Positions 11,248 to 51,439 of a DNA stretch of 64,000 bases are shown piece after piece (position 1 is the first letter of the stretch; every line of letters starts with the position of its first letter). Source of the stretch: a virus (Duplodnaviria; Caudoviricetes); the IMG/VR virus record IMGVR_UViG_3300021964_010723. One strand, given 5' to 3'. The translations under genes were made by a program, and so were the position numbers. Under the pieces are notes generated by a model. The model was not told the origin of the DNA, made no database searches, and saw only the letters and a program-made list of their open reading frames with translations.

Positions 11248-12819
11248 ATGGCATATATAATTAATACTTACAATACTGCTCAATTGACAGTAGTTGAAGA
11301 TGGAACAATTGATCAGACTACTGATTTAAAATTAGTAGGAAAAAATTATGCAGGATATGGTGAAATACAGAACGAAAATTTTGTATTTTTACTTGAAAAT
11401 TTTGCAGGCGCAAATGAACCACCGAAAGCCTTACCAGGACAAGCTTGGTTCGATACTAGCGATAGCAAGTTTAAGTTTTATGACGGAAGCAAGTGGAGAA
11501 CTGCTGGTGGTTCTGAAACAGGAGGACAAGCTCCTGCAGGTCTTACCACAGGAGATTTTTGGTGGGATACAACTAACGAGCAACTATACGCCTACAACGG
11601 AACTGAATGGATATTGATAGGACCACAAACAGCAGGAGAGGGCGTAACGCAGTTTCAAAGTAAGGCAATTCAAGATGCAAACGGTGTTAGTCAGTATGTT
11701 ATAGCAAGTGTTGTAAATGATGAAATAATCCATATTATAAGTGGTAGAGATTTTACAATAGGTGAAAACGATCAGGCAAAATATATTGGATTTGATAAAA
11801 TCCATGCAGGTCTTACTTTAAAAAATACTACAAATGCAACTGGGGGAGTAACAAGCACTGAACATCGATGGTGGGGAACAGCTACTAATGCAGACAGATT
11901 AGGAGGTTTAACTCTTGATAAGTTTGTACAATTTGACGAAAACTTAACATTTTCTAGTCAAGTTGGATTTGGAGATACAGGATTAGCTGTAGGCGACAGT
12001 AATGATTTACGTTTAAGAATTATAAACGATAATCAAGCAGTAATAGGAAATGAACAAGGGTATGATGTCTTTTTCCAAGTAAGAGATACTGATAATCAGG
12101 TAAGAATGCCTTTAAGATTAACGCATGATAAAGTATTACCTGGATATCAAACAGTTATAAATCCAGCTAGCACTTCTTACAACACAAATGCGGCTGGTGT
12201 AAGAATAGTTGATATAGGAAGTTCTACGGCAAGTTTTCAAAATGTTTATGCTGATAGATTCATTGGTACAGCAGATAAGGCAGATCAATTAGAAGTTTCA
12301 TACCTTACGGCAGGCAGTACTTTACAAACTGGTTATTTTACAGCAGACACTAGAGCAACGTCTGGTGTGTCTATATGTGTAAGAGATATTACTGGAGATA
12401 TACATGCAAATGTTTTTAGGGGTACAGCAACTGCAGCACAATACGCAGATTTAGCTGAGATGTATTTAAGTGATGTTGAATATGAACCTGGTACAGTCTT
12501 AGTGATAGGGGGTGAAGCAGAAGTGACTCAATCTACTTCTGATTTTGATCACAAAGTAGTCGGAGTAGTATCTACAAATCCAGCTCATGTAATGAACAGT
12601 GAATTAGAAGGGTGTACTGTTGCAGTAGCATTAAGGGGAAGGGTGCCTTGTAAGGTAGTAGGACCTGTATCTAAAGGTGATCTGTTAGTAACTTCTGCTG
12701 TAAGAGGAACAGCGAAAGCAGCTAAAGATTTAGAAAATATTAGTAATTCCTGTATTGTTGGAAAAAGTTTAGAAGATTTTTCATCAGAATCAGTTGGAAT
12801 TGTAGAAATTATTGTATAA
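11248..12819 (+). CDS. Tail fibre/appendage protein with C-terminal intramolecular chaperone (peptidase G2-like)
   Basis: Shared N-terminal domain. C-terminal ADLAEMY...VVGVVSTNPAHVMN...VALRGRVPCKVVGPVSKGDLLVTS. Confidence 0.7.
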   Translation: MAYIINTYNTAQLTVVEDGTIDQTTDLKLVGKNYAGYGEIQNENFVFLLENFAGANEPPKALPGQAWFDTSDSKFKFYDGSKWRTAGGSETGGQAPAGLTTGDFWWDTTNEQLYAYNGTEWILIGPQTAGEGVTQFQSKAIQDANGVSQYVIASVVNDEIIHIISGRDFTIGENDQAKYIGFDKIHAGLTLKNTTNATGGVTSTEHRWWGTATNADRLGGLTLDKFVQFDENLTFSSQVGFGDTGLAVGDSNDLRLRIINDNQAVIGNEQGYDVFFQVRDTDNQVRMPLRLTHDKVLPGYQTVINPASTSYNTNAAGVRIVDIGSSTASFQNVYADRFIGTADKADQLEVSYLTAGSTLQTGYFTADTRATSGVSICVRDITGDIHANVFRGTATAAQYADLAEMYLSDVEYEPGTVLVIGGEAEVTQSTSDFDHKVVGVVSTNPAHVMNSELEGCTVAVALRGRVPCKVVGPVSKGDLLVTSAVRGTAKAAKDLENISNSCIVGKSLEDFSSESVGIVEIIV

Positions 12820-12822
12820 ATA
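12815..12822 (+). promoter_or_regulatory. T4-type late promoter TATAAATA
   Basis: Exact T4 late consensus overlapping the stop of 11248, upstream of GGAG SD and ATG 12850. Confidence 0.6.
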
Positions 12823-12849
12823 AAGCTAGTAGTTTACACGGAGTTAAGT

Positions 12850-13806
12850 ATGGTATCAACAGTTTCGCAAGCTGGATCAATTAATGCACAGGATTATAAT
12901 AACCTGCATAATAAGGTTAATGAGATTTTAGGTCAAGGTTCAGGAGATTATGGTTATGGACAAACGGTAACCAGTAGCCCTGTAACAGCAACAAATTATC
13001 CAACTGTAGACGGGGATTTAGTTACTGCAACACAGTTAGATGCGTTACGGACTGATATAGAGAAATGTTGGAAGCACCAAACAAGTGCTTCTTTTACATT
13101 AGGAGACATAGCTGTTGGAGATGAAATTACAGCAGGTGCAACTACAGGTGCAGATAATAAAACTCATAATCAATATGTAAAGTATGTTAACGATATTGAT
13201 GCAAATAGGCTTAGCATAGATGCAGCAAACCAGTCTACTACTTCATTAGGTAACTCGGCTCAATACACCGCAACATGGGGTGTTGGAGCAGCTGGTAGTG
13301 CAGCAGCCCAAATTAGATATACTGCTAATGTGTCATGGAGTAGTGCAACAGCTAGAAGGCATTATTTCAATGCGGGAGGTCAGATTACAATAGATGCTTC
13401 AATGAACACATCTGAAGGAACAGGCACTAAAAATGGAAATTGGAAAGATTTGCTTAATAGGGCCGGGTTTAATTATGATAAAACAGCTGAGAATACACAG
13501 ACAACAAGCGCAATATTAAGGCAAACTACTTATGGTTCTGCTGGAGTTTACAGCGATAACTACGCAAGAATTTATACAAAAAATCTTAGCAGTACACAAC
13601 TGCAGTGTGTAATAGAATTTATAGATGGTGATATAGGTGACGATACAACTCCAAGCGATGGTTGGAATTACAGGGTAGACGAAGCGGTTACAGGAGATAT
13701 TACTGCAAGTTTAACAGACAGAACAGCTAGCGGATCATTTGTTGCAGTTACTAAACCAACCTATGCTTTTGTAGGATTTTCAACTTTTACTGGCACTTAT
13801 ACTTAA
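12850..13806 (+). CDS. Virion structural protein (fibre/collar-like)
   Basis: 318 aa, Thr/Gly/Ala-rich, follows a late promoter in the structural cluster. Confidence 0.55.
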   Translation: MVSTVSQAGSINAQDYNNLHNKVNEILGQGSGDYGYGQTVTSSPVTATNYPTVDGDLVTATQLDALRTDIEKCWKHQTSASFTLGDIAVGDEITAGATTGADNKTHNQYVKYVNDIDANRLSIDAANQSTTSLGNSAQYTATWGVGAAGSAAAQIRYTANVSWSSATARRHYFNAGGQITIDASMNTSEGTGTKNGNWKDLLNRAGFNYDKTAENTQTTSAILRQTTYGSAGVYSDNYARIYTKNLSSTQLQCVIEFIDGDIGDDTTPSDGWNYRVDEAVTGDITASLTDRTASGSFVAVTKPTYAFVGFSTFTGTYT

Positions 13807-13818
13807 AAAATAGAATTT

Positions 13819-14172
13819 ATGGATTCTAGATTAATAGATGCACTCGATTTTTCTAATTATCTCTTTTCTTTAACTAAACAAAAAGAATTAGCATTACACA
13901 AATTTGAAGAAAATTTAATTTTCTACAATAACGGCGGAACTTTTGTTATTACTTTAGATCTTATTAATTATTGTCAATTGTTAATAAGTAATGATCAAAA
14001 ACAAATCGTACTAATAGATAAAAATTCTATTCCAATCTTAATTAGTGATTTAACAAACTTTTTTGCAAAATTAGTGCAGCAGTACGAAAGAGCAAAAGAA
14101 AATTATTTTGAAGAATATTCAAAAATTATTAAATCTAGAGCCATAGAACAGATAATAGGTTTAGATGAATAA
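13819..14172 (+). CDS. Hypothetical protein (possible fibre assembly factor)
   Basis: 117 aa ORF overlapping the next gene by 8 nt; function inferred from position only. Confidence 0.5.
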   Translation: MDSRLIDALDFSNYLFSLTKQKELALHKFEENLIFYNNGGTFVITLDLINYCQLLISNDQKQIVLIDKNSIPILISDLTNFFAKLVQQYERAKENYFEEYSKIIKSRAIEQIIGLDE

Positions 14173-14986
14173 AGGTATTTTAGTTTTTGCTAAAAACAAT
14201 AATTCCATCAATTATGTAAATCAAGCTAAATTTTTAGCAAAACAATCACAAAAATATTTAGATTTACCCGTTTCAATTGTTACAGACAATCCAATAGATA
14301 ATAATGTTTGGTTTGATAAAGTAATTTTATACGATAATTATGCAAAGCAATACAAAAAGTATAATGATGGACATTTAGAAGGAAAAGTTGATTATTTTTT
14401 TAATTCTGCTAGACAATTTGCTTTTGAGTTATCTCCATATGATCAAACTTTGATGTTAGATACTGACATTGTTATAATGAATGACAAATATTTACAATGT
14501 TTTGAACAAAGTGATGATTTTTTGATTTATCATGATGCAGTAGATATTGCAAATTCAAGAGATTATTATGAATTTACATACATTTCTGAAGAAAGTATAA
14601 AATTTTATTGGGCTACTGCGGTTTATTTTACAAAATCTAAAAAAAATCAAATTTTCTTTAACTTACTTCAACATATATATGAAAATTGGAATCATTATAG
14701 TTTGATGTTTAAAATTAAACAAAAATATTTTAGAAATGATCATGCTTTTAGTATTGCAATTCATTTATTACATAGCTATACTAAAAGCAGTGTAAAATCT
14801 ATGCCTGGAAAATTATTTTATACTATCGATAAAGATATTTGTGTAAGTATTAATGAAAATAAAATTTTTCTTTTATTAGAAAAATCAAACGAACCTATAA
14901 ATTATTATCCTGTTTCTGTAGGTAATTTAAATTTACATATAATGAACAAGTTTAGTTTAGATAAATGTATTGCTAATATGATATGA
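14165..14986 (+). CDS. Glycosyltransferase-like protein (GT-A fold)
   Basis: LPVSIVTD and SPYDQTLMLDTDIVI (DxD) are typical of GT8-like nucleotide-diphospho-sugar transferases. Confidence 0.65.
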   Translation: MNKGILVFAKNNNSINYVNQAKFLAKQSQKYLDLPVSIVTDNPIDNNVWFDKVILYDNYAKQYKKYNDGHLEGKVDYFFNSARQFAFELSPYDQTLMLDTDIVIMNDKYLQCFEQSDDFLIYHDAVDIANSRDYYEFTYISEESIKFYWATAVYFTKSKKNQIFFNLLQHIYENWNHYSLMFKIKQKYFRNDHAFSIAIHLLHSYTKSSVKSMPGKLFYTIDKDICVSINENKIFLLLEKSNEPINYYPVSVGNLNLHIMNKFSLDKCIANMI

Positions 14987-15801
14987 AATTAGGTATTGTA
15001 ATTTGTGCATTTGGAAAAGATTATATAACGCAAGCAGAATTATTTGTTCTTAGCTTAAAATCTTGTAATGTAACTCTTCCTGTTACTTTAATTACTTCTT
15101 GTAAAGAAAATATATCTTTAGATTATTTTTTTGATAATATAATTGAAATTCCTAACAATATAGAGGACACATTTTATCATGTAGATATAAGGTCTAATAT
15201 ATATTTTTTATCTCCTTATGATTTTACTTTTGTCTTTGATACAGATATATTAATTTTAGAGAATTTATATGATAATTTAGTCAACCTTTCTAATAAAGTT
15301 GATATGTTTTATACATCAAAGGTTTTTACCTACAGAGGAGATGAAATAATTAAAGATTGTTACTACCGTTCCGTTTTTTTAGATAATAATCTACCTAATA
15401 TATATAACGGGTTCTCTGCTTTTAAAAAAACAAATAGCAATGATATATTTTTTTCTTTACTTAAGAAAATTAATAAAAATTGGCAAGTTGTATATAAAAT
15501 GTTTTGCCCATTAAATACACCTAAGAATGCAAGTATGGATGTGTCTACTGCAATTGTATGCAAAATATTAGATATTAATCCAATCTATAAATTTAATGCT
15601 AAATTTGTTCATATGAAAGCTAAAAATCAAAATTGGAAAACTAATCCTTATTATTGGCAAGATAAAGTGCAAACATTTTTAACACCAAATTTAGATTTTT
15701 ATGTAGAAACTTTTAAACAAAAAGGAATTTTTCATTATACTGAAAATGCTTTTTGTAACGAAAATATGGTTAATACATATAAAAGTTATTTAAGTTTATG
15801 A
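14983..15801 (+). CDS. Glycosyltransferase-like protein (GT-A fold), paralog
   Basis: LPVTLIT and SPYDFTFVFDTDILI (DxD); ATGA overlap with the previous gene. Confidence 0.65.
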   Translation: MKLGIVICAFGKDYITQAELFVLSLKSCNVTLPVTLITSCKENISLDYFFDNIIEIPNNIEDTFYHVDIRSNIYFLSPYDFTFVFDTDILILENLYDNLVNLSNKVDMFYTSKVFTYRGDEIIKDCYYRSVFLDNNLPNIYNGFSAFKKTNSNDIFFSLLKKINKNWQVVYKMFCPLNTPKNASMDVSTAIVCKILDINPIYKFNAKFVHMKAKNQNWKTNPYYWQDKVQTFLTPNLDFYVETFKQKGIFHYTENAFCNENMVNTYKSYLSL

Positions 15802-16349
15802 ATTATATATCATTTACTCCGGATAATGGAGAAATTTATAAAATTGCTCCGCATGCACCTTTACAAAAAGAAACATATATATGTGTAAAAACTAGTGAAG
15901 TTGTTCCTATTTTAACAGCTAAGTATCCTGTTTTATATAATTATCATGTTGTATATGATGAAAAGTCCTTTCAATATGTTTTAAAAAAGAAAGATGCAGA
16001 GATTGCAAAAGATAAAAGTCTAGGTAAATTATTTAATATACCTAATAAAAATAGCAATGCTAGCGTACAGATAACTGTAGATAAAGTTTCTAAACAATAC
16101 ATTGTAAAGATAAGTAAAACTGACGCAATAAAAATTTATGAAAAAAAATTATTGTTAAGTAAAACCTTTAGTGTTACAGAAGAAAATAATCCATTTATTC
16201 TTTACGAATCATTTACAGTTTATTTCAATCAAGACAAATTACAAAATACTTATAAAATACCTATTACTAATTTAGATGTATATACAAAGAAAAATTTTAG
16301 TATTTTTACAAAAAAACAATTTAGTTCATATTCTTATAAAATAAAATGA
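15798..16349 (+). CDS. Hypothetical protein
   Basis: 183 aa, 4-nt overlaps on both sides. Confidence 0.6.
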   Translation: MNYISFTPDNGEIYKIAPHAPLQKETYICVKTSEVVPILTAKYPVLYNYHVVYDEKSFQYVLKKKDAEIAKDKSLGKLFNIPNKNSNASVQITVDKVSKQYIVKISKTDAIKIYEKKLLLSKTFSVTEENNPFILYESFTVYFNQDKLQNTYKIPITNLDVYTKKNFSIFTKKQFSSYSYKIK

Positions 16350-18835
16350 AAAATATACTACGTGTAATCGATAATGACGTAATTTTTTTGTCTTACGATG
16401 AACCAAATGCTGAAAAGAACTATGCAGATTTATTAACAAAAATACCCTGGGCTAAACGAATACACGGTGTGCATGGTTCTGATTCTGCACATAAAGAATG
16501 TGCAAAGATAAGCGAAACAGAAAGATTGATAGTTATAGATGGTGACAATATTGTTGACGAAAATTTTGTAAACGAAGAAATAAATTTTATAAAGAATGTT
16601 GATATAACAAAAAATGTAATTAGTTGGCCAGGAAGGAATATTATAAATGGCTTAATTTATGGCAATGGCGGTATTAAATGTTGGGACAAGCAAACTTTGC
16701 TTGATATAAAAACGCACGAAAATGCCGATCCAAATAATATACATGCACAAGTTGATTTTTGTTGGGATATAGAATATATTACAATGCAAAAGTCAATGAG
16801 TGTTGTAGAAAATAACTTTACACCTCAACAAGCATGGCGAGCTGGGTTCCGAGAAGGTGTTAAAATGTGCTTGTTAGAAGGTGTTAAACCGTCTATAGAA
16901 GAATTTAATAAAATACATTGGAAAAATTTGCATAGATTGTACATATGGTGTATGACAGGACAAGATGTGAAAAATGGAATATATGCTATATTAGGCGCTA
17001 GGCAAGGTTTCTACAAAACTATGTGTACTGACTGGGATTTTATAAATGTTAGAGATTTTGCTTATTTAAATACTTTATGGAATGATGAATTAGAAGGTGT
17101 AGATGAAAATAGTGCTGCTGATCTTGCACAACAGTTTGGAGATAAAATTAAACAGCAGTTAGATATACCTATTTCTAGTTTACCATTAAGCATAGATCAA
17201 AGTAAATTCCATAAAACTACATTTACAAATAGCATTAGACCAAAGCATCCTTTGTTAGCTGCGGACAAAGAAACAGCAAGTTATGATATTGTAATGATAA
17301 CATACAACGAATTGAATGGCACAGAAAATTACAATAGATTAAAAGACAGATTTACAAATGTAAAAAGGATTCATAAAGTAAAAGGAATACATCAAGCCCA
17401 TATAGCAGCCGCAGAGATATGTGAGACTGATATGATGTGGGTAGTAGACGGTGATGCAGAAATTGTAGAAGATTTTTGTTTTGATTATATAGTTCCTAAC
17501 AATGAAAAACAGTTTGTACATGTTTGGCGCAGCAAAAATCCTATAAATGATTTAGAATATGGCTATGGAGGTGTAAAATTATTACCTACAGATATGACAC
17601 GTAATATGGATTTATCAAAACCAGACATGACCACAAGCATAAGTAGACATTTTAAGAAAATGGATCAGGTTAGTAATTATACACGATTTAACGTAGATAA
17701 GTTTACTACCTGGCGTAGTGCATTTAGAGAGTGTTGTAAATTAGCAAGTTCGGTAATTGATAGACAAAAACAGCAAGAAACAGATGAAAGATTAGAACGT
17801 TGGTGCAGTGATTATGGAAAAGATAGGCCATTTGGCGAATATGCAATATTAGGTGCAAATGAAGGCAAAGTATATGGTATCGAAAATGCTGGTAATTATG
17901 ATATGCTTGCTAAAATAAATGATTTTGATTGGCTTCTTTCTACATTTAATAATGAGGATACAAGTAATTTAATTAATCAAAATGAAAAAGATTTTGATTA
18001 TGATAAAGTTAATAATATAGAATTTATTCATGGTTTGCATGAATATGCAGTATATAAATCTGAAAAAAATGTAGCAGAAAATTTAGATAATATTTTGAAA
18101 ATACTATATTCTGACAATATTTCTAAACATTTAATTTTAGATGTTTTAATGAATAGTTCAGGTGAGAATACAAGGTATTTTAGATTTGTGAGAGATTTTG
18201 TAAAAAAAGGTAAAAATTTAAAAATTTTGTCCGATGCATTTAGTCGTAGTCAAATGCGTAGTAAAATTTGGTTAGTTGATGAATTAGCTAAAATAATGCC
18301 TAATCCACGTAATGTTGTATTAATGGCAGGATGGTATGGACAGTTAATTGATTTGTTTGGTGACAAAGATATAGATAAAATAACCTTTAGGAAATTTAGA
18401 AATATAGAGATAGATAAAGAATGTTGTATAGAAAGTGATTATAATTTTAATTTACGTAGACTAGAAGAGCATAAAGTTAAAGCAGTAAAAGCAGATATTA
18501 ATAATCTCACCCTACATGAAAATGGATACGAATGGGAAGTGGAAACTTTTAAAACTGGAGAAAAATATGTAGAAAAATTCTTACCAGATTTAATTATTAA
18601 TACAAGTTCTGAACATATGACAACCGAATGGTTTAATCAAATACGTTTTAAAAAATGGATAAAAAAACCTTTGGTTGTAATTCAAAATAATAATTTTTTT
18701 GGAATACCCGAACATGTAAATTGTGTGCATAGTGTTGATCATATGAAAAAAGTATTTCCTATGGAAGAAATATTATTTGAAGGAGAATTACAGCTTAAAG
18801 GTTATAAACGTGTAATGTTAATAGGGTATGCATGA
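16346..18835 (+). CDS. Tandem glycosyltransferase-like domains fused to a class I SAM methyltransferase-like domain
   Basis: Two similar domains (..SY(D/N)E..KRIH.V.G...AH...VIDGD / VVDGD...GG(I/V)K...WR..FRE..K). C-terminal DAFSRSQ..KIWL..VVLMAGWYG...INTSSEHM. Confidence 0.65.
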   Translation: MKNILRVIDNDVIFLSYDEPNAEKNYADLLTKIPWAKRIHGVHGSDSAHKECAKISETERLIVIDGDNIVDENFVNEEINFIKNVDITKNVISWPGRNIINGLIYGNGGIKCWDKQTLLDIKTHENADPNNIHAQVDFCWDIEYITMQKSMSVVENNFTPQQAWRAGFREGVKMCLLEGVKPSIEEFNKIHWKNLHRLYIWCMTGQDVKNGIYAILGARQGFYKTMCTDWDFINVRDFAYLNTLWNDELEGVDENSAADLAQQFGDKIKQQLDIPISSLPLSIDQSKFHKTTFTNSIRPKHPLLAADKETASYDIVMITYNELNGTENYNRLKDRFTNVKRIHKVKGIHQAHIAAAEICETDMMWVVDGDAEIVEDFCFDYIVPNNEKQFVHVWRSKNPINDLEYGYGGVKLLPTDMTRNMDLSKPDMTTSISRHFKKMDQVSNYTRFNVDKFTTWRSAFRECCKLASSVIDRQKQQETDERLERWCSDYGKDRPFGEYAILGANEGKVYGIENAGNYDMLAKINDFDWLLSTFNNEDTSNLINQNEKDFDYDKVNNIEFIHGLHEYAVYKSEKNVAENLDNILKILYSDNISKHLILDVLMNSSGENTRYFRFVRDFVKKGKNLKILSDAFSRSQMRSKIWLVDELAKIMPNPRNVVLMAGWYGQLIDLFGDKDIDKITFRKFRNIEIDKECCIESDYNFNLRRLEEHKVKAVKADINNLTLHENGYEWEVETFKTGEKYVEKFLPDLIINTSSEHMTTEWFNQIRFKKWIKKPLVVIQNNNFFGIPEHVNCVHSVDHMKKVFPMEEILFEGELQLKGYKRVMLIGYA

Positions 18836-19050
18836 ATTTAGAAAATTTTAGTCTAAGAAAGCTACAAAAAGAAAGTGCTCGTGCATTAGCTACAATAGAA
18901 GCTACAAACGATAGAATATATCAATTTAATAAGCAAGCGCATCATGACAGTCAAAATTGGTACAAAACTGTTATAACCTGGTATGTAGGTAAATATAATG
19001 GTCTTCCAAGTGAGATAGGTCCAGGAAAGGATATTAAGATAATATGTTAA
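18832..19050 (+). CDS. Small hypothetical protein
   Basis: 72 aa, overlaps both neighbours. Confidence 0.55.
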   Translation: MNLENFSLRKLQKESARALATIEATNDRIYQFNKQAHHDSQNWYKTVITWYVGKYNGLPSEIGPGKDIKIIC

Positions 19051-20841: not shown

Positions 20842-20857
20842 TATGGGAAAAAAATAA

Positions 20858-27482: not shown

Positions 27483-27483
27483 A

Positions 27484-30124: not shown

Positions 30125-30133
30125 ATAAAATAT

Positions 30134-38172: not shown

Positions 38173-38199
38173 TGTCTAACTTATGGACAATTTTTACTA

Positions 38200-41227: not shown

Positions 41228-41257
41228 AAGATAAATGGTTAGAGGAGATTAGTACAT

Positions 41258-43495: not shown

Positions 43496-44009
43496 TACGT
43501 GCGATTATAATATTTTACAAGATGTTAATTTTATAGTAAAGGATGCCGAGTATCTAGCAAATATTATAAAAAAACCGTGTAGAATAACTTTTTATATTTC
43601 GGAACATCGAAATTGGAATCAAATGCAGTCATTACCTGTCTTTGAAGATAACGAAAGATTTACATGTTTAGGTCCAAAACCAATGATTGAAATTTATCAT
43701 TGTAAATATAAAAACAATTTAGAGTTAGATTTTTTAAAAGATATTAAAAAAAAATATAATATTACAGACTTTGTTGTTGCTTGTATGAGTCCAAATTTTA
43801 TAATGAATTGGCACACAGATTGGTTCGGCGGCAAACGTTTGCATATTCCAATTGTAACAAATGATCAGTGCTTTCTTGAAACAGAAGAATTAAAAGTAAA
43901 TTGTCAAACTAATAAAGTTTATATTTTAGATACCGAAGTTGAACATACAGCATGTAATCTTGGAAATTCAAATAGATTACATTTAATAGGCGATTTAAAT
44001 GCAATGTAA
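43479..44009 (+). CDS. 2OG-Fe(II) oxygenase (AspH-like)
   Basis: WHTD, RLHIPIVTN, HTACN, RLHLIGD. Confidence 0.75.
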   Translation: MIKEIDTCDYNILQDVNFIVKDAEYLANIIKKPCRITFYISEHRNWNQMQSLPVFEDNERFTCLGPKPMIEIYHCKYKNNLELDFLKDIKKKYNITDFVVACMSPNFIMNWHTDWFGGKRLHIPIVTNDQCFLETEELKVNCQTNKVYILDTEVEHTACNLGNSNRLHLIGDLNAM

Positions 44010-44589
44010 AAAAATTGATATTAATATCGACATAAATACACTAAAAGATATATTAAGCCCTTATTGCAATAATTTACATAACATTGCAAAACAATATCCA
44101 GACGATATTGTAAGAGTAATGACTAATTATCCTGCAGGGTTAGGGCATTACACAATGAATAAACGCTTAGACGAAAATTGGCAAGTAATTGAAACTGATG
44201 AATATTTTCTATATACAATGATTAACAAATTTAGTACACGTATGATAAGTGTTTACTATAAAGAGTCTGCCGATATTGACAATTATATACAAGAAATTAT
44301 AAACAAAATACAATCTGTAGAAAATATAAAAGATAAAACTCCTGTAGTTGCATTAGTATATGCTGGTCCTAAGTTTAGATTAGAGAAACATATCGATAGT
44401 AAAGGGTTAGTAAGGTATCATATTCCGCTAGAAACTACTGAACACAGTTATTTTGTAACTTATGATCCTAAAACTAAGTGGTGGCCAAAAGAAGGCGACG
44501 TATGGCGTTTAGAGACTGAGAAATATCATGCAGCAATGAACGATAGTGAAACAGAAACAAGAATACATATGATAGTGGATTTTATCTAA
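43999..44589 (+). CDS. 2OG-Fe(II) oxygenase (AspH-like)
   Basis: KHID, RYHIPLET, HAAMN, RIHMIVD. Confidence 0.75.
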   Translation: MQCKKIDINIDINTLKDILSPYCNNLHNIAKQYPDDIVRVMTNYPAGLGHYTMNKRLDENWQVIETDEYFLYTMINKFSTRMISVYYKESADIDNYIQEIINKIQSVENIKDKTPVVALVYAGPKFRLEKHIDSKGLVRYHIPLETTEHSYFVTYDPKTKWWPKEGDVWRLETEKYHAAMNDSETETRIHMIVDFI

Positions 44590-45218
44590 TGACTAATGTA
44601 ACGCTATTAGACACAAATTTTAAAGATATGTTAACTGAGTTAAAAACTGAGCTAGCGCCTTATCTTGCAGCAATGCAAGATTATGAGCAACATTTAGATT
44701 TTAGTAAATACCCAAATAGAGTAGCAATTGTATACCCTGTAGGCAATACACAAAAAAGTTTATATGCAAGCAGAAATCTTGATAAAAAGAAACCAGTTCA
44801 CAGAGATTTTGAAACATACAAAAGTTTGCAATTATTTTTCCCCGGACATCAAACTTTAAACCATACGCTCCAACTTAAAGGAGGAAAATATCCTGTTGAT
44901 ATAATTAATAAAATAAAGTTTATTATTTTTAAAGAAACTGGATATGATGTATTAGAGTGCGAAGCAGCAATTGCAACAAAGTATAAAAACTACACATTGC
45001 AGCCGCACATTGACGGTGATAAGGAAGAAAGTGGAGTAACGAACAGAATTCATTTGGTATTAGAGTCTAGTGAAACAAATTACTTTGAAGATGAAAATAA
45101 AATGAGATACAACCTTAAAGAAGGAGAAGTTTGGGATCTAGATGTTACACGTACACATGGTACTGGAAACTTTTCAGATGCTAGAGCTACTCATCTAGTT
45201 CTCGATTACAAAGGATGA
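44589..45218 (+). CDS. 2OG-Fe(II) oxygenase (AspH-like)
   Basis: PHID, RIHLVL, HGTGN, RATHLVLD. Confidence 0.7.
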   Translation: MTNVTLLDTNFKDMLTELKTELAPYLAAMQDYEQHLDFSKYPNRVAIVYPVGNTQKSLYASRNLDKKKPVHRDFETYKSLQLFFPGHQTLNHTLQLKGGKYPVDIINKIKFIIFKETGYDVLECEAAIATKYKNYTLQPHIDGDKEESGVTNRIHLVLESSETNYFEDENKMRYNLKEGEVWDLDVTRTHGTGNFSDARATHLVLDYKG

Positions 45219-46774
45219 AACTTTTACTATGTACTATACCTAAAAATGGAGTCAATACTCCTAGTCTAGCAATCGGATACCTTCAAGCGGCTTGTAAGCA
45301 GCAAGGCATAGCCGTAGAAGTAAGAGATTTTAACTGGGACCTCTGGAATGCTACTATACATACGGACTGGTGGGAAATATGGAAAGAGTCTAACACAGAT
45401 TTATACAAAGGTAATCGATTTAATCAGTTTGTCAATGAAGTATACGACAACTTTCTTGATAAGTGGGCAGAAGAAATAGCAAACAACAATGCTGAATGGA
45501 TCGGCATCAGTTGTTTTAGCTATCGTAGTTTGCCTAGTTTGAAACTTCTGGCTCCTAAAATCCGCAAACTTGCTCCTACTAAAAAGATAATTGTCGGCGG
45601 CGCTCCTATAGCAACATATGCAAATTGGATTATAGCAAATAATATAGCAGATTATGCAGTTGAAAGCGAAGGCGATGTTGTGCTTCCTAAAATACTTAAA
45701 GGAGAGATACAGCCCGGAATTGTTAAATCTATACAAATTGATGACCTTAACTCCTTACCGCCAGCAGATTATACAGGACTAGATTTTTCTAAATATATCC
45801 CAGGAGATCCAGGCGGACTACGAGTACATCATAATTCAGCCTGGACTAGTAATAGAGTTGAAGCAGGAATAATGGGTAGTAGAGGATGCGTTCGTAAATG
45901 TACATTTTGTGATGTAGAACAGTATTGGCCTAAATTTAGATGGCGCAGTGCCGAAAGCATTTATGACGAAATGCTAATGCTATACAACAAAGGCATAAAC
46001 GAAATATATTTTTACGATAGTTTAATAAATGGTAATCAAAGCGAGTTTGAAAAGTTGCTAGATTTAATTATCGCAGATGGTTCTAAGTTTAGAAGTATCA
46101 AAGGTTTAGCAATTTTTAAATTTCAGCCTGAAAGGTTGTATGAAAAAATGTCTAAAGCAAATGTGAAACAACTAAGTATCGGGGTAGAAAGTTTCTCAGA
46201 AGAAATTCGTACACAGATGCGTAAAAAGTTTAGCAATGCTACTATGGAAGAAAATCTTGAAATGTACAAAAAGTACAAAATAAGAGTAGTACTGCTAATG
46301 GTAATAGGGTATCCTAGTGAACGAGAAAAACATCATAAAGAAAATCTTAAATGGATAAGAGAACATGCCAGCATGGCACAAGGAAAACCAATTAGTAGAA
46401 TTGAAATAGGCGGAACAATGATTATACTACCTGGAGCTCCTGTGTTCAAAGATCATATGTTTGATTATTATATTGACAAAAAAAATGAATGGATTTCACT
46501 AAATGGTAGAGAATCTAATACGATGGATGTTAGAGTGAGACGTAGAGAAGAAACTGAAGACTATTGTGCTCGTTACGGATTTGCTACTGGAAGTGTATAT
46601 GGAGAAGGAGGAATTGTTTTAGGTGATCATGAAAAAAATAATGCTGCTGACTATAAACGCCCGCAAGATAGTCTGACACCATTAACAAATATTAATAAGT
46701 TAAATTTTGAAGAAGACGGCATTGTATTAGGATGGGAAAGTGATCCAACTCGACCATTACATCAAAATTCGTAG
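45215..46774 (+). CDS. Cobalamin-binding radical SAM protein
   Basis: IGISCF, IVGG, ESEG; SRGCVRKCTFCD; GVES; paralog of 30837. Confidence 0.85.
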   Translation: MKLLLCTIPKNGVNTPSLAIGYLQAACKQQGIAVEVRDFNWDLWNATIHTDWWEIWKESNTDLYKGNRFNQFVNEVYDNFLDKWAEEIANNNAEWIGISCFSYRSLPSLKLLAPKIRKLAPTKKIIVGGAPIATYANWIIANNIADYAVESEGDVVLPKILKGEIQPGIVKSIQIDDLNSLPPADYTGLDFSKYIPGDPGGLRVHHNSAWTSNRVEAGIMGSRGCVRKCTFCDVEQYWPKFRWRSAESIYDEMLMLYNKGINEIYFYDSLINGNQSEFEKLLDLIIADGSKFRSIKGLAIFKFQPERLYEKMSKANVKQLSIGVESFSEEIRTQMRKKFSNATMEENLEMYKKYKIRVVLLMVIGYPSEREKHHKENLKWIREHASMAQGKPISRIEIGGTMIILPGAPVFKDHMFDYYIDKKNEWISLNGRESNTMDVRVRRREETEDYCARYGFATGSVYGEGGIVLGDHEKNNAADYKRPQDSLTPLTNINKLNFEEDGIVLGWESDPTRPLHQNS

Positions 46775-47388
46775 TCAAATAGTTTTATTTCGTATGCAAA
46801 ATCTTTTAAGATTTGGTCGTGCATCCAATCTTTGTATAACGTTTTATATGTAGCCTTGCTGTGTGTACCTGTGTTTAAAACTGGTAAATCTGGTAATATA
46901 TATCCGCTAAAGATACTATTTAAATAATTACGTAAATGTTCTATAGGAAGGATGTGTTTGGCTACTATAGTTCCGTCTAATGTGTAGTAATCTTTACCTG
47001 GATTCAATGTGCCACGTAGTTCTAAAAGTCCTTGACAGAAGCGGTTAAATGTGTCTGTAGGTACTTGTGTAACTCCTAGCTTTTTCATATGATAAAATTT
47101 ACTTGCTAATAAATTCCATGGGTTGCGGACAGTAACTATTATTTCCATTTTATTCCACCACTGTGGAAATGTTTCTTTGGCTCTCGCCGCAGTCATGTGA
47201 TGCGTAATTATAGTGTCTTGTTCAATGTCAACATTAAAGTTGCTTTGTTTATAATTTAAACTTGTTAAATAGGGACGATGATTAATTTTAGCAAACTCTA
47301 CAAGCCAGTGTGTCATGCTAAGACTTGCACTTTTTGGCTGGCGTAAGTAACAAATAAATTTTCCAGGCGGAAAGATTATACTAGTCAC
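46762..47388 (-). CDS. Sulfotransferase family protein
   Basis: YLRQPKSASLS and VTVRNPW..LASKF. Start proposed at GTG 47388 (GTGA overlap with the upstream stop) rather than ATG 47448. Confidence 0.6.
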   Translation of the reverse strand: MTSIIFPPGKFICYLRQPKSASLSMTHWLVEFAKINHRPYLTSLNYKQSNFNVDIEQDTIITHHMTAARAKETFPQWWNKMEIIVTVRNPWNLLASKFYHMKKLGVTQVPTDTFNRFCQGLLELRGTLNPGKDYYTLDGTIVAKHILPIEHLRNYLNSIFSGYILPDLPVLNTGTHSKATYKTLYKDWMHDQILKDFAYEIKLFDYEF

Positions 47389-47849
47389 ATTATTCTCATA
47401 ATAAATTGATGTCCGCCATAGTGCAATTGTTCGTGTGAAATATTCCAAAGGTATTTTGAGAATTTAGCAAAATATTCAAATAGTTTAGGACTTTCCTCTC
47501 TACTTAGCCAGATACTGGTATAGCCTAGGGCTAATGCATACTTTGTACTAAGATCCAAAGTTTCTAATCCTCTTGCTAAATCATTAGACTTAGTGCCAAA
47601 ATTGTAAGTTCTTTCTCGAGTATGTCGGCTCATAATTCTTATTGATTTATTATATTCTGGTCTTTCTATTCCAGCACTATAATAAATTAGTTCTCCATTA
47701 TAGTATGCCATTCTAGCAAATTTAGTGTATTCAAATAAAGGCCATTTTAAGTAATTATCTGCGTGTCTGTGAGTAGAATTTTTTTCAAATAGAGTTTTTA
47801 TTGCATTTAAATGGCTGTCTATAGGCTCTAAATACCATTTTAGGTGCAT
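47385..47849 (-). CDS. Hypothetical protein (possible GNAT-like fold)
   Basis: 154 aa; alpha/beta pattern with 'YALALGYTSIWLS' reminiscent of GNAT motif B; weak. Confidence 0.45.
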   Translation of the reverse strand: MHLKWYLEPIDSHLNAIKTLFEKNSTHRHADNYLKWPLFEYTKFARMAYYNGELIYYSAGIERPEYNKSIRIMSRHTRERTYNFGTKSNDLARGLETLDLSTKYALALGYTSIWLSREESPKLFEYFAKFSKYLWNISHEQLHYGGHQFIMRIM

Positions 47850-48472
47850 AAATTATTCTGCAAGAAATTTAAATCTTCAGTGCCTTTTAATGAAAACATC
47901 AAAGCAGTCCTATCATTTAGACTATCATTTACAACAGAATGTGGAAAACCTACATTTAAAAAATAAATTTTTCCAGCTTTTAAATTGTATTCTTCAATCT
48001 TGTTTTTTCTTTTAAAAAGATTTTTTACATTTTTATCTGTTTCAATGGGATAGATACATCTTACAGCATAATCTACGTTATAATCTACATGGAAAGGAAT
48101 AGTTTTTCCTGCTGACAATTTTGTTATACGTATGCGACTTACAGGAGCTTTAAAAAGTTTTTTTAAATTATTTTCTAGCCAAGTATCTTTGAAAAAAGGT
48201 GTAGCTACATTGTACAAATGTTCTTCTTGTCTTTTCAATCTTTCTTTAATATTTTCTGTGTAAGGCAAAATTTCTGAAGGGTTAGTTAAATTTATTTGTT
48301 CAAAGTTGTCATATACATTTTTAACTAATTCCATGTGATTGTCACATAGCATCGGATTAGCAGACCTAACATCGATAAATTTGTCTTTTATGGTTAAAAA
48401 ATATTCATTGACTTTATTAAAATCAATAGTAAATGGAAATTCTGCAACGTTAGGTAATACATGTTTATTCAT
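47840..48472 (-). CDS. 2OG-Fe(II) oxygenase (AspH-like)
   Basis: SRIRITKLSAGKTIPFHVD, HSVVN, DRTALMFS. Confidence 0.8.
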   Translation of the reverse strand: MNKHVLPNVAEFPFTIDFNKVNEYFLTIKDKFIDVRSANPMLCDNHMELVKNVYDNFEQINLTNPSEILPYTENIKERLKRQEEHLYNVATPFFKDTWLENNLKKLFKAPVSRIRITKLSAGKTIPFHVDYNVDYAVRCIYPIETDKNVKNLFKRKNKIEEYNLKAGKIYFLNVGFPHSVVNDSLNDRTALMFSLKGTEDLNFLQNNLCT

Positions 48473-49241
48473 TATATTCTGCCATTAATGGTGATAAGCT
48501 AATTCTATTTATGTTGTTTGTACGTTTGAATTTATTGTAAATTGGATTAGTTGATGTTGCAAGCCAAACCGAATCGCTAGGTGTTAAATCTAATTTATCA
48601 CAAATTTTGTATTGTAAGTTGTTAAGTCGGTTGTATACATAGTTAATATCAAATGTTTTTATAATTTCTTCAGATGCATTATGAGCAATATAATTATAAT
48701 ATTTTGCACTGTTTATTAGGTTTTCTAATTTATTATCTTGTGTCCTAGAAAAAAACCATCCTGTTCTAATGTTTCTAATGCCAAATGATTTACTTAAACT
48801 ATAAAATACATATTCGATATTATCACTATTTTTTATTTCAATAATTTTGGTACTACCTATATATGCTAAGTCTAAAGCAACAGGAATATCAGTAGGAATG
48901 TTTCTATAATTACCATGTATACTACTAGGACAACTTATATAATGGATATATGAATCATGTATTGTAGCTGTTTTTGGAACCCATTGATAATCGCCGTCGT
49001 CTAAAAAAATTTTTCGTTTTTCATTTGACAACCACCAATCTAAGCCTTGTGTAATACCATTCATTGGATAAACATAAAAATTAGATAAATCTATTATAGG
49101 ATGCAACCATTGAACTATATTTGTTTTATACGGAGTTACGTTGTCCAAATCATAAGGTATACGAGATATTGTTTTCCGAACCTCGCTAAGAACGTTTGTT
49201 CTTACTGCTGTGCTTTGAGCTAGTAATTTATTTACTTGCAT
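48465..49241 (-). CDS. PLP-dependent enzyme (fold type I, aminotransferase/decarboxylase-like)
   Basis: NGITQG, PSSIHG, DLAY, SLSKSFG..RTGW (Schiff-base Lys). Confidence 0.7.
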   Translation of the reverse strand: MQVNKLLAQSTAVRTNVLSEVRKTISRIPYDLDNVTPYKTNIVQWLHPIIDLSNFYVYPMNGITQGLDWWLSNEKRKIFLDDGDYQWVPKTATIHDSYIHYISCPSSIHGNYRNIPTDIPVALDLAYIGSTKIIEIKNSDNIEYVFYSLSKSFGIRNIRTGWFFSRTQDNKLENLINSAKYYNYIAHNASEEIIKTFDINYVYNRLNNLQYKICDKLDLTPSDSVWLATSTNPIYNKFKRTNNINRISLSPLMAEYNE

Positions 49242-49806
49242 TTATGTGATGAGTATGATGGTCCCCTTCAAAAGGAGCAATAAAACTTAACCAAAAACAA
49301 TTCTTTGCAGTGCCAGTGGAGGTATGGCCCCACAAATTTAATGCACCAAAACCTATGTATGATAATAGAGAAATTAAAGATAAAATTATTATCGAATCAA
49401 TTCCAAATAATAAAAATAGAATGAAAGCATTTACAGCATATAATAGATAGATATTTTTGTGAACAAATACAATGTATTGATTTTTTATTACATCTTTTAT
49501 AAATTTTCTAGGAATGTTTTTTACTTTCCAAAGACTGAATAAAATTACATACCATTTTAAATATTTTCTACTATGAGGATCTTTTGGAGTGTCTGAATAG
49601 GTATGATGCATTCTGTGAACACCGACCCAAGTCAAGGGAGATTTACATCCGCAGAGCATGCCACAGTATAAAATTAAAATTTCGTGGAATACACTAGTTG
49701 TAAATGTTTGATGGGCATAAAAGCGATGATAACCAAAGGTAATACCAATTGTAGAAGTAATAAAATATAAAAGATATGACAGTAATGTTAGACTTAATAC
49801 ATCCAT
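49228..49806 (-). CDS. Membrane fatty-acid desaturase (delta9-like)
   Basis: His boxes HRFYAH, HRMHH and HHTHH with hydrophobic segments. Confidence 0.85.
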   Translation of the reverse strand: MDVLSLTLLSYLLYFITSTIGITFGYHRFYAHQTFTTSVFHEILILYCGMLCGCKSPLTWVGVHRMHHTYSDTPKDPHSRKYLKWYVILFSLWKVKNIPRKFIKDVIKNQYIVFVHKNIYLLYAVNAFILFLLFGIDSIIILSLISLLSYIGFGALNLWGHTSTGTAKNCFWLSFIAPFEGDHHTHHINASK

Positions 49807-49815
49807 TATAATTTT

Positions 49816-51399
49816 TTATGATAGATTTACCCATCCGCTGCCATCATACCCTTGGAATTTTGGCACAGCAGGAGAGCCACCTTGAGATCCATCATCAAGA
49901 AGAAAAATTATCATTCCTGCAGCAGGAGAAGTAATATCTGCATCTCTTGCAGTGCTGTCAGCATAAGTACCTAAGTTAACAGGCCCACCAAATGCAGCGT
50001 CACCGTCTACAGTTAATCTAGCAGTAGCAATGTCTGTTCCTATTGATAAGGACCCGTCTTCTTGTATGTAAACTCTAGCTGTTGCAGGAAAATTTTGTAT
50101 CGGTCCTCGACAGAAAAATTTAAATCCATCTGTTCCGCCTTTGATAAAAGCATCTGTTATATCTTCTCCATTAAGATCTGATCGGGTGAAATCTAATCTG
50201 CCATGGTCGTTACCAGCACCTGACAGATCTAGATCAGAGCGGTTATAATTCAATTGGAATCTAGTTTGTCCTTGTCCTCTTACTCTAATGTACCAAAAAC
50301 CGTTTACTCCGGTTGAATCTACTATTTCTAAATTTTTAGCTGGAACAGCGATAAGTTGAGTGGTTAAAGAGTCTGATGTTACAATACTGGCAATTACATT
50401 ACCAGTCAAATTACCACTAACATTCCCTGACACGTCTCCAGTCAAGTCACCAGTAACATTCCCGAACACGTCTCCAGTCAAGTCACCAGTAACATTCCCG
50501 AACACGTCTCCAGTAACATTTCCGATCACGTCTCCAATAACATCACCTTGTATATCAATATAACCTATTCCTGTTACGTGATCAATCAACACACTAGAAT
50601 CTGTACCTATTAGGCTTGCTTCTATTGTCAATGCTTCTATGAAAGGAGTGTGTATCGTGGTATTTACCTCTAAGGTGTCTACAGTAGTATTTGTTGCAGT
50701 TAAAGTATCAATAGTTGCAGTGTCAGAGATCGTTATGGTACTCAAAGTTAAAACATTTGGAACTACAGGTCCAGGAATCCATTTGTTTGTTGAGCTGTCC
50801 CATTTTAATACATCTCCAGGATATATAGTGCCAGGATAAGAAATATCCTTTAAATCCTCAATAGAATTATTGCCTAAATATACATTTTCGCTAGTTCTGC
50901 TAACTAAGACTTGACCATTGACACCTTGTATAGATGCTGTAATACTGTTTGTTGGTATCCAAGTACTTGAGGATGCTGAATACCTAAGTACATCATCGTT
51001 AGCTGGATTCTCTGCATCTACATCAGGAAGATCAGAAAGCACATTATTATCTAGTACTAGTTTGCTGTTTGCTCCGTCAACTAATGGCTGGGAATCGTCG
51101 CCAAAAATACTACCCGTTACATCTGTTATAATGGTAGGAATGGTAAGTGTTCCTGTCGCTGAAATATCTCCGCTAATGTTGATATTACCAAAACCTACAA
51201 TATCTTGTCCATTTAAGTCTATATCGGCACCTAATTGTGGAGATGTGTCATTTATCAAATCTGAAACGCTCACACCACCTGCAGTAACTCCGTCCCCTAT
51301 ATATAATCTTTTTGTATCAGTTGAGTAAACTAGCTCACCTTCTACGAAAACAATGCCAATGCGCTCTAAGTCTGTTCCTCTACGTATTCGTAACGCCAT
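49816..51399 (-). CDS. Tail fibre-like virion protein
   Basis: N-terminal MALRIRRGT...EGELVYSTDTKRLYIGDG, GxVx repeats, D.L.W....W fibre modules; TATAAATA promoter and AGGAG SD upstream. Confidence 0.7.
   Translation of the reverse strand: MALRIRRGTDLERIGIVFVEGELVYSTDTKRLYIGDGVTAGGVSVSDLINDTSPQLGADIDLNGQDIVGFGNINISGDISATGTLTIPTIITDVTGSIFGDDSQPLVDGANSKLVLDNNVLSDLPDVDAENPANDDVLRYSASSSTWIPTNSITASIQGVNGQVLVSRTSENVYLGNNSIEDLKDISYPGTIYPGDVLKWDSSTNKWIPGPVVPNVLTLSTITISDTATIDTLTATNTTVDTLEVNTTIHTPFIEALTIEASLIGTDSSVLIDHVTGIGYIDIQGDVIGDVIGNVTGDVFGNVTGDLTGDVFGNVTGDLTGDVSGNVSGNLTGNVIASIVTSDSLTTQLIAVPAKNLEIVDSTGVNGFWYIRVRGQGQTRFQLNYNRSDLDLSGAGNDHGRLDFTRSDLNGEDITDAFIKGGTDGFKFFCRGPIQNFPATARVYIQEDGSLSIGTDIATARLTVDGDAAFGGPVNLGTYADSTARDADITSPAAGMIIFLLDDGSQGGSPAVPKFQGYDGSGWVNLS
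50431..50502. repeat. Exact 36-nt tandem repeat (2 copies plus degenerate flanks) in the fibre gene
   Basis: cacgtctccagtcaagtcaccagtaacattcccgaa at 50431-50466 and 50467-50502; one unit encodes FGNVTGDLTGDV on the - strand. Confidence 0.9.
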
Positions 51400-51431
51400 G
51401 TCTTATAACTCCTAATATTCCTTGCTTTATA

Positions 51432-51439
51432 TATTTATA
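51432..51439 (-). promoter_or_regulatory. T4-type late promoter TATAAATA
   Basis: Exact consensus on the - strand, 32 nt upstream of ATG 51399. Confidence 0.6.

Follow-up and report, generated by a model that had tools for sequence, protein, structure and literature searches.

Why should the tail-fibre module of a phage carry some 38 kb of enzyme genes, 14 of them for radical S-adenosylmethionine (SAM) proteins, which are oxygen-sensitive, costly and rare in phages? The question is raised by a 64-kb stretch of DNA of about 30% G+C from an uncultured phage (IMG/VR record IMGVR_UViG_3300021964_010723; the whole stretch is referred to here as the window), in which an island of enzyme genes is embedded among fibre genes. 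An earlier note on this DNA had proposed that the island decorates virion fibres. The island proves to be real, syntenic with fibre genes in related phages, probably late-expressed and composed of soluble enzymes; fibres are a candidate substrate. As the best single explanation we propose, tentatively and at rather less than an even chance, that the enzymes act late and in the cytoplasm to tailor fibre or virion proteins of the phage itself.

The nearest record, IMGVR_UViG_3300021425_004041 (86 kb; referred to here as G001), shows the gene order of the window and encodes proteins that are mostly 90–100% identical; farther off are G002 (330 kb, with a CheckV completeness of 93%), G003 (307 kb) and G004. 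Genes flanking the island for a MoxR ATPase, a VWA/metallopeptidase and a 5'–3' exonuclease encode proteins 36–44% identical to those of PA5oct, Rak2-like and Vibrio jumbo phages. The island-bearing phage is an estuarine or marine jumbo phage of a T4-gp55-type lineage related to Ralstonia phage RsoM2USA and to phages of the PA5oct/Rak2 type. Near-identical island DNA is found in estuary, salt-marsh and marine metagenomes (at least 18 studies), and the lineage is present in hundreds of IMG/VR contigs. A megablast search of 50,697 phage records with 24 kb of the island matched nothing, nor did a tblastn search of phages with radical SAM protein 36635 (genes are named here by their lower coordinate, Table 1).

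Bracketing the island are fibre genes, as the earlier note had described, with a Collar-domain fibre upstream and an Mtd_N fibre (49816) at the head of a minus-strand unit. The plus-strand unit extends from the ATG at 12850 to the stop codon at 46774 and comprises 36 open reading frames (ORFs), including one of 72 amino acids (aa) at 18832–19050. Packing is tight, with overlaps at 29 of 35 junctions and a sole real gap at 41166–41257. The minus-strand unit converges on it, extending from 51399 to 46762, so that the final genes of the two units share 13 nucleotides (nt).

Heading each unit is a T4-type late promoter motif, TATAAATA. The copy at 12815 (+) overlaps the stop codon of the preceding fibre gene, 28 nt upstream of the ATG at 12850, and the copy at 51432 (−) precedes the fibre gene at 51399–49816. 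These two, already singled out as promoters of fibre-linked units, are the only sense-oriented intergenic copies in the window, the other five of the seven lying antisense within genes. The motif is three-fold depleted (7 copies in 64 kb against 21.4 ± 5 in dinucleotide shuffles), consistent with selection against spurious late promoters. It also precedes the orthologous first gene of the plus-strand unit in G001 and G002, and the minus-strand motif recurs in G001 at 79881. Homologues of the T4 late sigma factor gp55 are encoded by G001, G002 and G003 (36–38% identity over about 75 residues, E ~1e-6). Because of the placement and conservation of the motif and the gp55 homologues in relatives, the island is probably expressed late, as had been proposed. 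Generic sigma-70 promoter and terminator scans of the window gave results no better than shuffles, and the scan found no terminator between the converging units.

The largest enzyme class of the island is formed by the radical SAM proteins. Pfam detects Radical_SAM (PF04055) in exactly 14 island ORFs, the number counted earlier, with scores of 29.5–72.8 bits against a gathering cut-off of 29.5 bits, and the CxxxCxxC motif is kept in all 14. Eight (20858, 22257, 23422, 24582, 27484, 32321, 33477 and 34699) have an N-terminal twitch domain, in which a C-x17-C ... C-x2-C pattern precedes the CxxxCxxC core; the twitch cysteines C9, C27, C92 and C95 are invariant in all eight paralogues (alignment A3). 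Five of the eight (20858, 22257, 24582, 27484 and 33477) were scanned with NCBIfam model NF033640 and score 175–414 bits over its full length (cut-off 170 bits). The remaining three, 23422, 32321 and 34699, were assigned to it by alignment A3 and their matches in G001, and 23422 and 32321 also by the SPASM-then-Radical_SAM order of their Pfam domains. The G001 orthologue of 34699 scores 131 bits, below the cut-off. A literature search on N-terminal-twitch radical SAM proteins of NF033640 or on phage radical SAM arrays found no experimentally characterised member, so that a match to NF033640 names an architecture and not a reaction.

Three further members, 30837, 38200 and 45215, appear to be of the B12-binding type, and all their matches to NCBIfam equivalog models fall far below cut-offs. 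For 45215, the B12-binding domain (PF02310) scores 40.2 bits against a cut-off of 32.1, and the best NCBIfam match, TIGR03975, a C-methyltransferase family of peptides that are made ribosomally and modified post-translationally (RiPPs), is below cut-off. The best matches of 30837 are PhpK and RiPP C-methyltransferase families, again all below cut-off. Another radical SAM gene is split in the window into two overlapping ORFs, 25777 and 26516, which correspond to one 396-aa ORF in a Bdellovibrionales contig (L101, 6665–7855); the separation could be natural or could reflect a frameshift.

Four glycosyltransferase-like domains and one methyltransferase-like domain had been predicted in the island, and each was recovered. 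P0001 is an 829-residue protein whose three domains are separate genes in relatives. Its second domain (residues 305–545; model predicted local distance difference test score (pLDDT) 89.8) appears to be a GT-A glycosyltransferase, all top Foldseek matches being GT-A enzymes at modest TM-scores of 0.37–0.41 (WrtF, RmlT, ppGalNAc-T, SunS, ArnC, GtrB and TarS), and residues 1–290 are a copy of this domain, 29% identical to its family. The C-terminal domain (residues 600–829; pLDDT 81.3) is predicted to adopt the class I SAM methyltransferase fold: its model has at least 500 Protein Data Bank (PDB) matches at E ≤ 1e-3, to class I methyltransferases or spermidine synthases, and the sequence has conserved AGWYG and FDID motifs. 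The other two glycosyltransferases are the tandem genes 14165 and 14983, whose joint profile (A6) matches glycogenin-1 and -2 of family GT8 (E 1.7e-4 to 2.6e-3) in the nucleotide-binding/DxD region only. None of the island's glycosyltransferase-like proteins reaches a Pfam glycosyltransferase family cut-off. PDB sequence searches with P0001, 48465, the methyltransferase profile and 28760 gave no match, and atlas searches with P0001 and 28760 returned virus-only hypothetical clusters alone. The window's lowest G+C content (23%, at 14001–16000) coincides with the GT8-like gene pair and the ORF of 183 aa; flanking core genes have 35–40%.

Eight AspH-like 2-oxoglutarate (2OG) oxygenases had also been counted, and eight are found here, six with Pfam and two with a hidden Markov model (HMM) built from those six, along with a marginal ninth. 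Passing the 22.6-bit cut-off of PF05118 are 30134, 42602, 43479, 43999 and 47840, and 44589 lies just below it at 21.0 bits; the in-window HMM adds 41889 (E 1e-9) and 41258 (E 4e-8), with 40563 marginal. The HxD...H metal site is present in all nine. An LpxO-type lipid A hydroxylase was considered for this group and rejected, no hydrophobic segment being present in any of the nine proteins. Within the island, membrane segments are predicted for the desaturase-like 49228 alone (three hydrophobic segments), whose place in the minus-strand unit agrees with the earlier reading (PF00487, E 1.4e-7). The nitroreductase, short-chain dehydrogenase/reductase (SDR), minus-strand sulfotransferase and pyridoxal phosphate (PLP) enzyme reported there were matched as well, all weakly and below curated cut-offs. 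Pfam and PHROG searches, even at E ≤ 10, returned nothing for 12850, 13819, 15798, 19044, 28760, 35751, 39977 and 47385. Of these, 19044, in which a GCSWS motif alone was seen, had been read earlier as an SGNH protein and 47385 as a possible GNAT; these readings, a second SGNH protein and a plus-strand sulfotransferase were not confirmed, and none of the families listed earlier was refuted.

Table 1 Features of the island and its flanks in the 64-kb window.
Feature	Position	Strand	Basis or remark
Giant acidic structural protein, >2145 aa, 5'-open	1–6438	+	Upstream neighbour of fibre genes
Three tandem fibre paralogues, 699/676/523 aa	7077–12819	+	First has Phage Tail Collar domain, Pfam E 1.2e-16
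T4-type late promoter motif TATAAATA	12815–12822	+	Heads + unit; only + strand copy in window
P0002, 318 aa, first gene of + unit	12850–13806	+	Thr/Ala/Gly/Ser-rich (Thr 14%), fibre-like composition
Conserved 117-aa protein	13819–14172	+	39% to RsoM2USA ORF354, 43% in G002
Two GT8-like (glycogenin-like GT-A) glycosyltransferases, 273/272 aa	14165–15801	+	LDTD and FDTD motifs
183-aa protein	15798–16349	+	No Pfam/PHROG match, E ≤ 10
P0001, 829 aa: GT-A ~1–300 (IDGDN), GT-A ~305–545 (VDGDA), class I SAM methyltransferase ~600–829 (predicted)	16346–18835	+	
72-aa ORF and 245-aa protein (19044) with GCSWS motif	18832–19781	+	No family match
Core radical SAM, 357 aa	19768–20841	+	Pfam Radical_SAM
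Core N-twitch radical SAM, 468 aa	20858–22264	+	NF033640 E 7.8e-124, 414 bits; exactly at Pfam Radical_SAM cut-off
Three N-twitch radical SAM paralogues, 392/386/404 aa	22257–25796	+	Pfam, NF033640, alignment A3
Split radical SAM: 248-aa core and 129-aa Cys-rich C-terminal piece	25777–26905	+	Pfam, sequence
Nitroreductase-like (weak), 201 aa	26877–27482	+	PF00881 E 3e-3, below cut-off
N-twitch radical SAM, 429 aa	27484–28773	+	NF033640 E 1.8e-98
454-aa protein, virus-only family	28760–30124	+	No Pfam/PHROG match, E ≤ 10
AspH-like 2OG oxygenase	30134–30853	+	PF05118 E 1.6e-12
B12-binding radical SAM (methyltransferase class)	30837–32324	+	Pfam; B12-binding domain below cut-off
Three N-twitch radical SAM paralogues, 387/409/351 aa	32321–35754	+	Pfam, NF033640, alignment A3
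294-aa protein	35751–36635	+	No Pfam/PHROG match, E ≤ 10
Core radical SAM, 371 aa	36635–37750	+	Pfam
SDR-like fragment (weak), 141 aa	37747–38172	+	PF00106 E 6e-4, below cut-off
B12-binding radical SAM, 608 aa	38200–40026	+	Pfam; B12-binding domain below cut-off
206-aa protein	39977–40597	+	No Pfam/PHROG match, E ≤ 10
Seven AspH-like 2OG oxygenases: 40563 (marginal), 41258, 41889, 42602, 43479, 43999, 44589	40563–45218	+	Pfam, in-window HMM
B12-binding radical SAM, 519 aa, last gene of + unit	45215–46774	+	Radical_SAM E 4.8e-20, B12-binding E 3.5e-10
Sulfotransferase-like (weak), last gene of − unit	46762–47448	−	PF00685 E 3e-4, below cut-off
154-aa protein	47385–47849	−	No Pfam/PHROG match, E ≤ 10
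AspH-like 2OG oxygenase	47840–48472	−	PF05118 E 6.5e-7
Truncated aminotransferase class I/II-like (PLP-fold) protein (weak), 258 aa	48465–49241	−	Below cut-off
Fatty-acid-desaturase-like protein	49228–49806	−	PF00487 E 1.4e-7, above cut-off
Fibre with Mtd_N domain, 527 aa	49816–51399	−	PF18454 E 7.9e-8, above cut-off
T4-type late promoter motif TATAAATA	51432–51439	−	Heads − unit, before fibre gene 51399–49816

The association with fibre genes is kept in relatives. The order in G002 is a giant protein, a 204-aa protein, three fibres, the 318-aa and 117-aa proteins and the two GT8-like genes, followed by a GT-A domain, about 45 kb of radical SAM-rich genes, the Mtd_N fibre and then the VWA and MoxR genes (65–81% identity). 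The position of the island between giant baseplate/fibre genes and the Mtd_N fibre is shared by G001 and G002, so that synteny with fibre genes, on which the earlier proposal had staked itself, holds in these relatives, and likewise for a core module in RsoM2USA.

Recurring across 80 IMG/VR loci that were compared is a set of one GT-A domain and the radical SAM proteins 19768 (orthologues in 79 of 80 loci, median identity 68%) and 20858 (median identity 78%); the other radical SAM paralogues of the window reach just about 25% identity across the same loci. Relatives of 20858 number 282 in IMG/VR (68–82% identity), and in G002–G004 orthologues of 19768 and 36635 are 64–71% and 77–84% identical, respectively. 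The core, 64–84% identical across relatives, consists of one GT-A domain and the radical SAM proteins 19768, 20858 and 36635. Relatives carry 8–14 genes above the NF033640 cut-off and further radical SAM genes, all clustered and up to about 20 in total. Some window paralogues, such as 32321, are absent from G002–G004 yet have orthologues of 66–75% identity in many metagenomic contigs, and the periphery therefore resembles a pool of orthogroups dealt differently among genomes. Homologues of 32321 number about 1900 in metagenomes (E ≤ 1e-10); the best 120 listed are 66–75% identical, apart from one at 95%, and those reached are phage-like metagenomic orthologues only. The island is, as judged from these comparisons, a lineage trait with a conserved core and a variable periphery, in which the remaining radical SAM and AspH-like genes look like shuffled cassettes.

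Between the window and G001, nucleotide identity is 89–97% in the backbone and fibres (91–97% in the backbone including the MoxR/VWA genes), 98.4–100% in the radical SAM array at 19–41 kb, and 82–93% in the AspH segment at 41.2–44.4 kb, the most divergent segment, where about 0.9 kb is replaced. Such uneven identity points to a recent recombinational sweep that exchanged the radical SAM block and to rapid turnover among the AspH paralogues. Divergence between these two near-identical strains is concentrated in the fibres, the island's glycosyltransferase head and its AspH genes, a pattern that is suggestive of fibre or virion tailoring.

A reduced form of the island is present in a cultured phage. 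Among the 50,697 phage records, relatives of P0001 were found in the Ralstonia jumbo phage RsoM2USA only. Its ORF347–354 (MG752970.1), annotated as hypothetical, come after ORF361, which encodes the giant virion protein, and a fibre-like gene, and their order is that of the window: ORF354 corresponds to the 117-aa protein (39% identity), ORF353 and ORF352 to the two GT8-like proteins (33% and 29%), ORF350 and ORF348 to GT-A domains 1 and 2 of P0001 (40% and 41%), ORF347 to its methyltransferase domain (24%) and ORF349 to an N-twitch radical SAM protein (24–27%). RsoM2USA differs in having a single radical SAM gene and no AspH array, and in being a soil phage of a beta-proteobacterium. ORF361, ORF359 and ORF356 were detected in RsoM2USA virions by mass spectrometry, and ORF361 adjoins the baseplate wedge (PMC8504454). 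This mini-module offers a cultured system for a direct test of the tailoring question.

How might the island work, if it tailors virion proteins? Its core, conserved in the lineage, is formed by the two GT8-like transferases, the GT-A/GT-A/methyltransferase protein and radical SAM enzymes 19768, 20858 and 36635, and its periphery, shuffled among strains, by the N-twitch paralogues, the B12-binding methyltransferase-type radical SAM enzymes, the AspH-like oxygenases and a few others. Made in the cytoplasm during virion assembly, these enzymes would act on late structural proteins, namely the fibres and/or the Thr/Ser-rich P0002. The chemistry could comprise glycosylation with O-methylation of the sugar, hydroxylation of the Asp/Asn type, and radical C–H steps (oxidation, C-methylation or cross-links), and the surface chemistry of the virion could then differ between strains without a change of fibre sequence.

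Several lines of evidence point in this direction. As hydrophobic segments are confined to the desaturase-like protein, the chemistry is likely to take place in the cytoplasm on a soluble substrate. Enzymes of the AspH family hydroxylate Asp/Asn in proteins, and radical SAM enzymes with SPASM/twitch domains act mostly on peptides or proteins. Structural matches of the GT-A domain include the protein- or peptide-directed transferases ppGalNAcT and SunS, and GT8 includes glycogenin. The abundant proteins of late infection are the virion's own. Proteins are thus indicated as substrates by the enzyme families, the late promoters, the position in the fibre module and the fibre-like, Thr-rich first gene. 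That gene, P0002, has an orthologue in G002 (31% identity), and from its composition we infer that it is a candidate acceptor. A precedent for the layout of P0001 is A064R of PBCV-1, a protein with two glycosyltransferase domains and a methyltransferase domain that builds and methylates the capsid-protein glycan (PMC9614988). Like P0001 as modelled, A064R is one soluble virus-encoded polypeptide in which a GT-A domain and a second glycosyltransferase domain are followed by a class I SAM methyltransferase at the C terminus; its target is the structural-protein glycan of its own virus, and since the order matches, we count it in favour of virion-glycan tailoring. The two have no detectable sequence similarity, and A064R differs further in that its second domain is assigned to a new family outside GT-A, that it works without radical SAM or 2OG enzymes, and that its virus infects a eukaryote and expresses these genes early.

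Other observations weigh against tailoring of virion proteins. The core radical SAM proteins (64–84% identity) are far more conserved than the fibres (32–41%), and a fibre target would for this reason have to be a conserved part of the fibre, or else another protein. Enzymes of the GT8 and GT2-like types also build lipopolysaccharide (LPS) and teichoic acids. The reading presupposes that one promoter drives transcription of the plus-strand unit over 34 kb, and metatranscriptome contigs on the island (run X24) are few and short and show presence in an RNA library only. Cellular relatives of the array, finally, have neither fibre nor glycosyltransferase neighbours.

These relatives were located by scanning one genome per prokaryotic species with an alignment of three N-twitch paralogues; a scan of the same kind with a single-protein query found nothing. 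Overwhelmingly, the relatives of the N-twitch proteins lie in metagenome-assembled genomes (MAGs) of Bdellovibrionales, often at several loci per genome, and among cellular organisms NF033640 seems to reside chiefly in this order. Seven N-twitch genes stand in tandem on one complete chromosome of 1.9 Mb (L113, OZ220490.1), and other array loci are L101/L092 (CBDCLX010000002.1) and L088. Array partners are relatives of 19768, of 25777/26516 in fused form and of the PLP-like 48465, together with AspH-like and SDR-like proteins, among housekeeping genes (rpoD, dnaG, aat, pdxH, phoH, and genes for a GGDEF protein and an asnB-like asparagine synthase). No glycosyltransferase, fibre or evident precursor gene was found beside the arrays, which, lacking fibre and glycosyltransferase neighbours, suit a free metabolite or peptide no less well than a virion protein.

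A more specific form of the virion-protein idea, in which RiPP-style chemistry on the phage's own tail-fibre or virion proteins, from oxidation, C-methylation and cross-linking by radical SAM enzymes to serial hydroxylation of Asp/Asn and the addition of methylated sugars, is varied through interchangeable cassettes and so diversifies a receptor-binding or protective surface without any change in the fibres, is possible but on balance unlikely. Pathways of the proteusin/polytheonamide type apply a radical SAM epimerase, B12-dependent radical SAM C-methyltransferases and an Fe/2OG hydroxylase to one polypeptide; they and the island have the same mix of enzyme classes, the island differing by its lack of a precursor, a nitrile-hydratase-like leader, a RiPP recognition element (RRE), a protease and an exporter.

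Rather improbable, in our judgement, is a free product, that is, a RiPP-like peptide, small metabolite or cofactor made by a radical SAM/2OG/PLP pathway common to the phage and Bdellovibrionales, which might serve in infection, for instance to counter competitors or defences, or go into the virion. The Bdellovibrionales tandem arrays speak for it, with up to seven N-twitch genes set among housekeeping genes, as do the RiPP C-methyltransferase and PhpK families that head the NCBIfam matches of the B12-binding enzymes and the resemblance of the enzyme mix to proteusin pathways. Against it, matches to characterised maturases in NCBIfam are all far below cut-offs; the 72-, 117-, 129- and 154-aa ORFs are not Cys/Gly-rich, lack repeated cores and include nothing precursor-like; Pfam finds no RRE/PqqD domain, leader protease or peptidase, or ATP-binding cassette (ABC)-type or other exporter in the island ORFs; and the sole radical SAM gene of RsoM2USA is sandwiched between glycosyltransferase genes. 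A classical RiPP cluster, having no precursor-like ORF and no RRE, was rejected, although a cryptic precursor is possible.

Less probable still is remodelling of the host cell surface, in which the island enzymes would alter LPS, O-antigen, capsule or lipids late in infection, for instance to block superinfection or to stop progeny from re-adsorbing to lysing cells. GT8-like and GT2-like folds are common among the enzymes that make LPS and teichoic acids, the variability of the cassettes resembles that of O-antigen loci, one membrane protein of the island is like a fatty-acid desaturase, and pelagimyophages have fibre-adjacent clusters with GT8, radical SAM cassettes and AspH for which O-chain modification was proposed (PMC7029224). 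Missing from the island, however, are a flippase, a polymerase, a polyprenyl-phosphate transferase and further membrane components, all of its enzymes but one are soluble, and the AspH-like proteins are without the membrane anchor of LpxO, which together weaken an LPS or lipid A reading; late expression would leave little time for turnover of the surface, and 14 radical SAM enzymes have no known precedent in LPS pathways.

Chemistry directed at DNA or nucleotides, such as hypermodification of DNA or the production of viperin-like nucleotide analogues as a counter-defence, is highly improbable: T4-type phages do use glycosyltransferases on DNA, and some of the radical SAM proteins weakly match viperin, QueE and MoaA models, but these matches are generic and far below cut-offs, and the island has late promoters, sits in a fibre module and contains no nucleotide-metabolism or DNA-binding genes. 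Among the alternatives that the earlier note had listed, this one and LpxO-type hydroxylation are the least supported, and RiPP-like chemistry is left without a precursor or RRE; surface remodelling and a free product are live rivals to tailoring of virion proteins.

The closest described locus is the pelagimyophage and cyanomyophage host recognition cluster (HRC), a hypervariable region of 34–45 kb inside the structural module, bounded by VrlC and the neck gene gp14 (PMC7029224). In the HRC, as in the island, tail fibres are mixed with GT8, AspH-type hydroxylase and radical SAM cassettes that differ between close genomes, and both occur in low-GC marine phages. The phages with an HRC are T4-like myophages of 140–190 kb, whereas the island belongs to a jumbo lineage of about 330 kb, and its radical SAM complement is far larger, dominated by NF033640 and built around a strongly conserved core. 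A fibre-adjacent hypervariable cluster with glycosyltransferase, AspH and radical SAM cassettes was thus already known from marine T4-like myophages, without functional analysis; new are the jumbo lineage, the scale of the island, NF033640 as its dominant family, the conservation of a core, the three-domain enzyme resembling A064R, the mini-module of RsoM2USA and the counterpart arrays of Bdellovibrionales.

Fourteen radical SAM genes in one phage, and up to about 20 in relatives, inside a fibre module are of consequence under more than one reading. If the island tailors virion proteins, it would represent a new kind of phage surface variation that bears on host range, adsorption and the decay of marine viruses; if the tailoring is swapped by cassettes, it would add a previously unknown layer of variation in host range and defence evasion, one that the phages would have in common with Bdellovibrionales, predators that employ fibre-like adhesins as well. 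If the product is free, an undescribed natural-product pathway would be common to phages and Bdellovibrionales.

The fibres themselves are variable. The three upstream of the island, 32–40% identical to those of G002, share an N-terminal domain of about 130 residues, which RsoM2USA ORF355 has too, but diverge towards their C termini; they look like an alternative or branched fibre set, the 523-aa member having matches to PHROG tail fibres. The N terminus of fibre 49816 is conserved and the rest is variable, just the first 82 residues matching G002 (56%). The giant protein at 1–6438 is 42% identical to its G002 counterpart over half its length and weakly matches RsoM2USA ORF361; Pfam finds no domain in it, and VrlC and gp14 were not identified.

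Two of the MAG contigs are probably of phage origin. L086 (JBDNIA010000282.1, a 'Crocinitomicaceae' MAG) and L087 (NZGL01000008.1, a 'Gammaproteobacteria' MAG), the best MAG matches at 63–69%, carry phage core genes in phage order (59–83% identity) and were probably misbinned into bacterial MAGs. Directly past the island lies a MoxR-type AAA ATPase and DUF2201 metallopeptidase/VWA pair (52871–55325, −); it is 65–82% identical in relatives and occurs in 806 phage records, mostly of jumbo phages.

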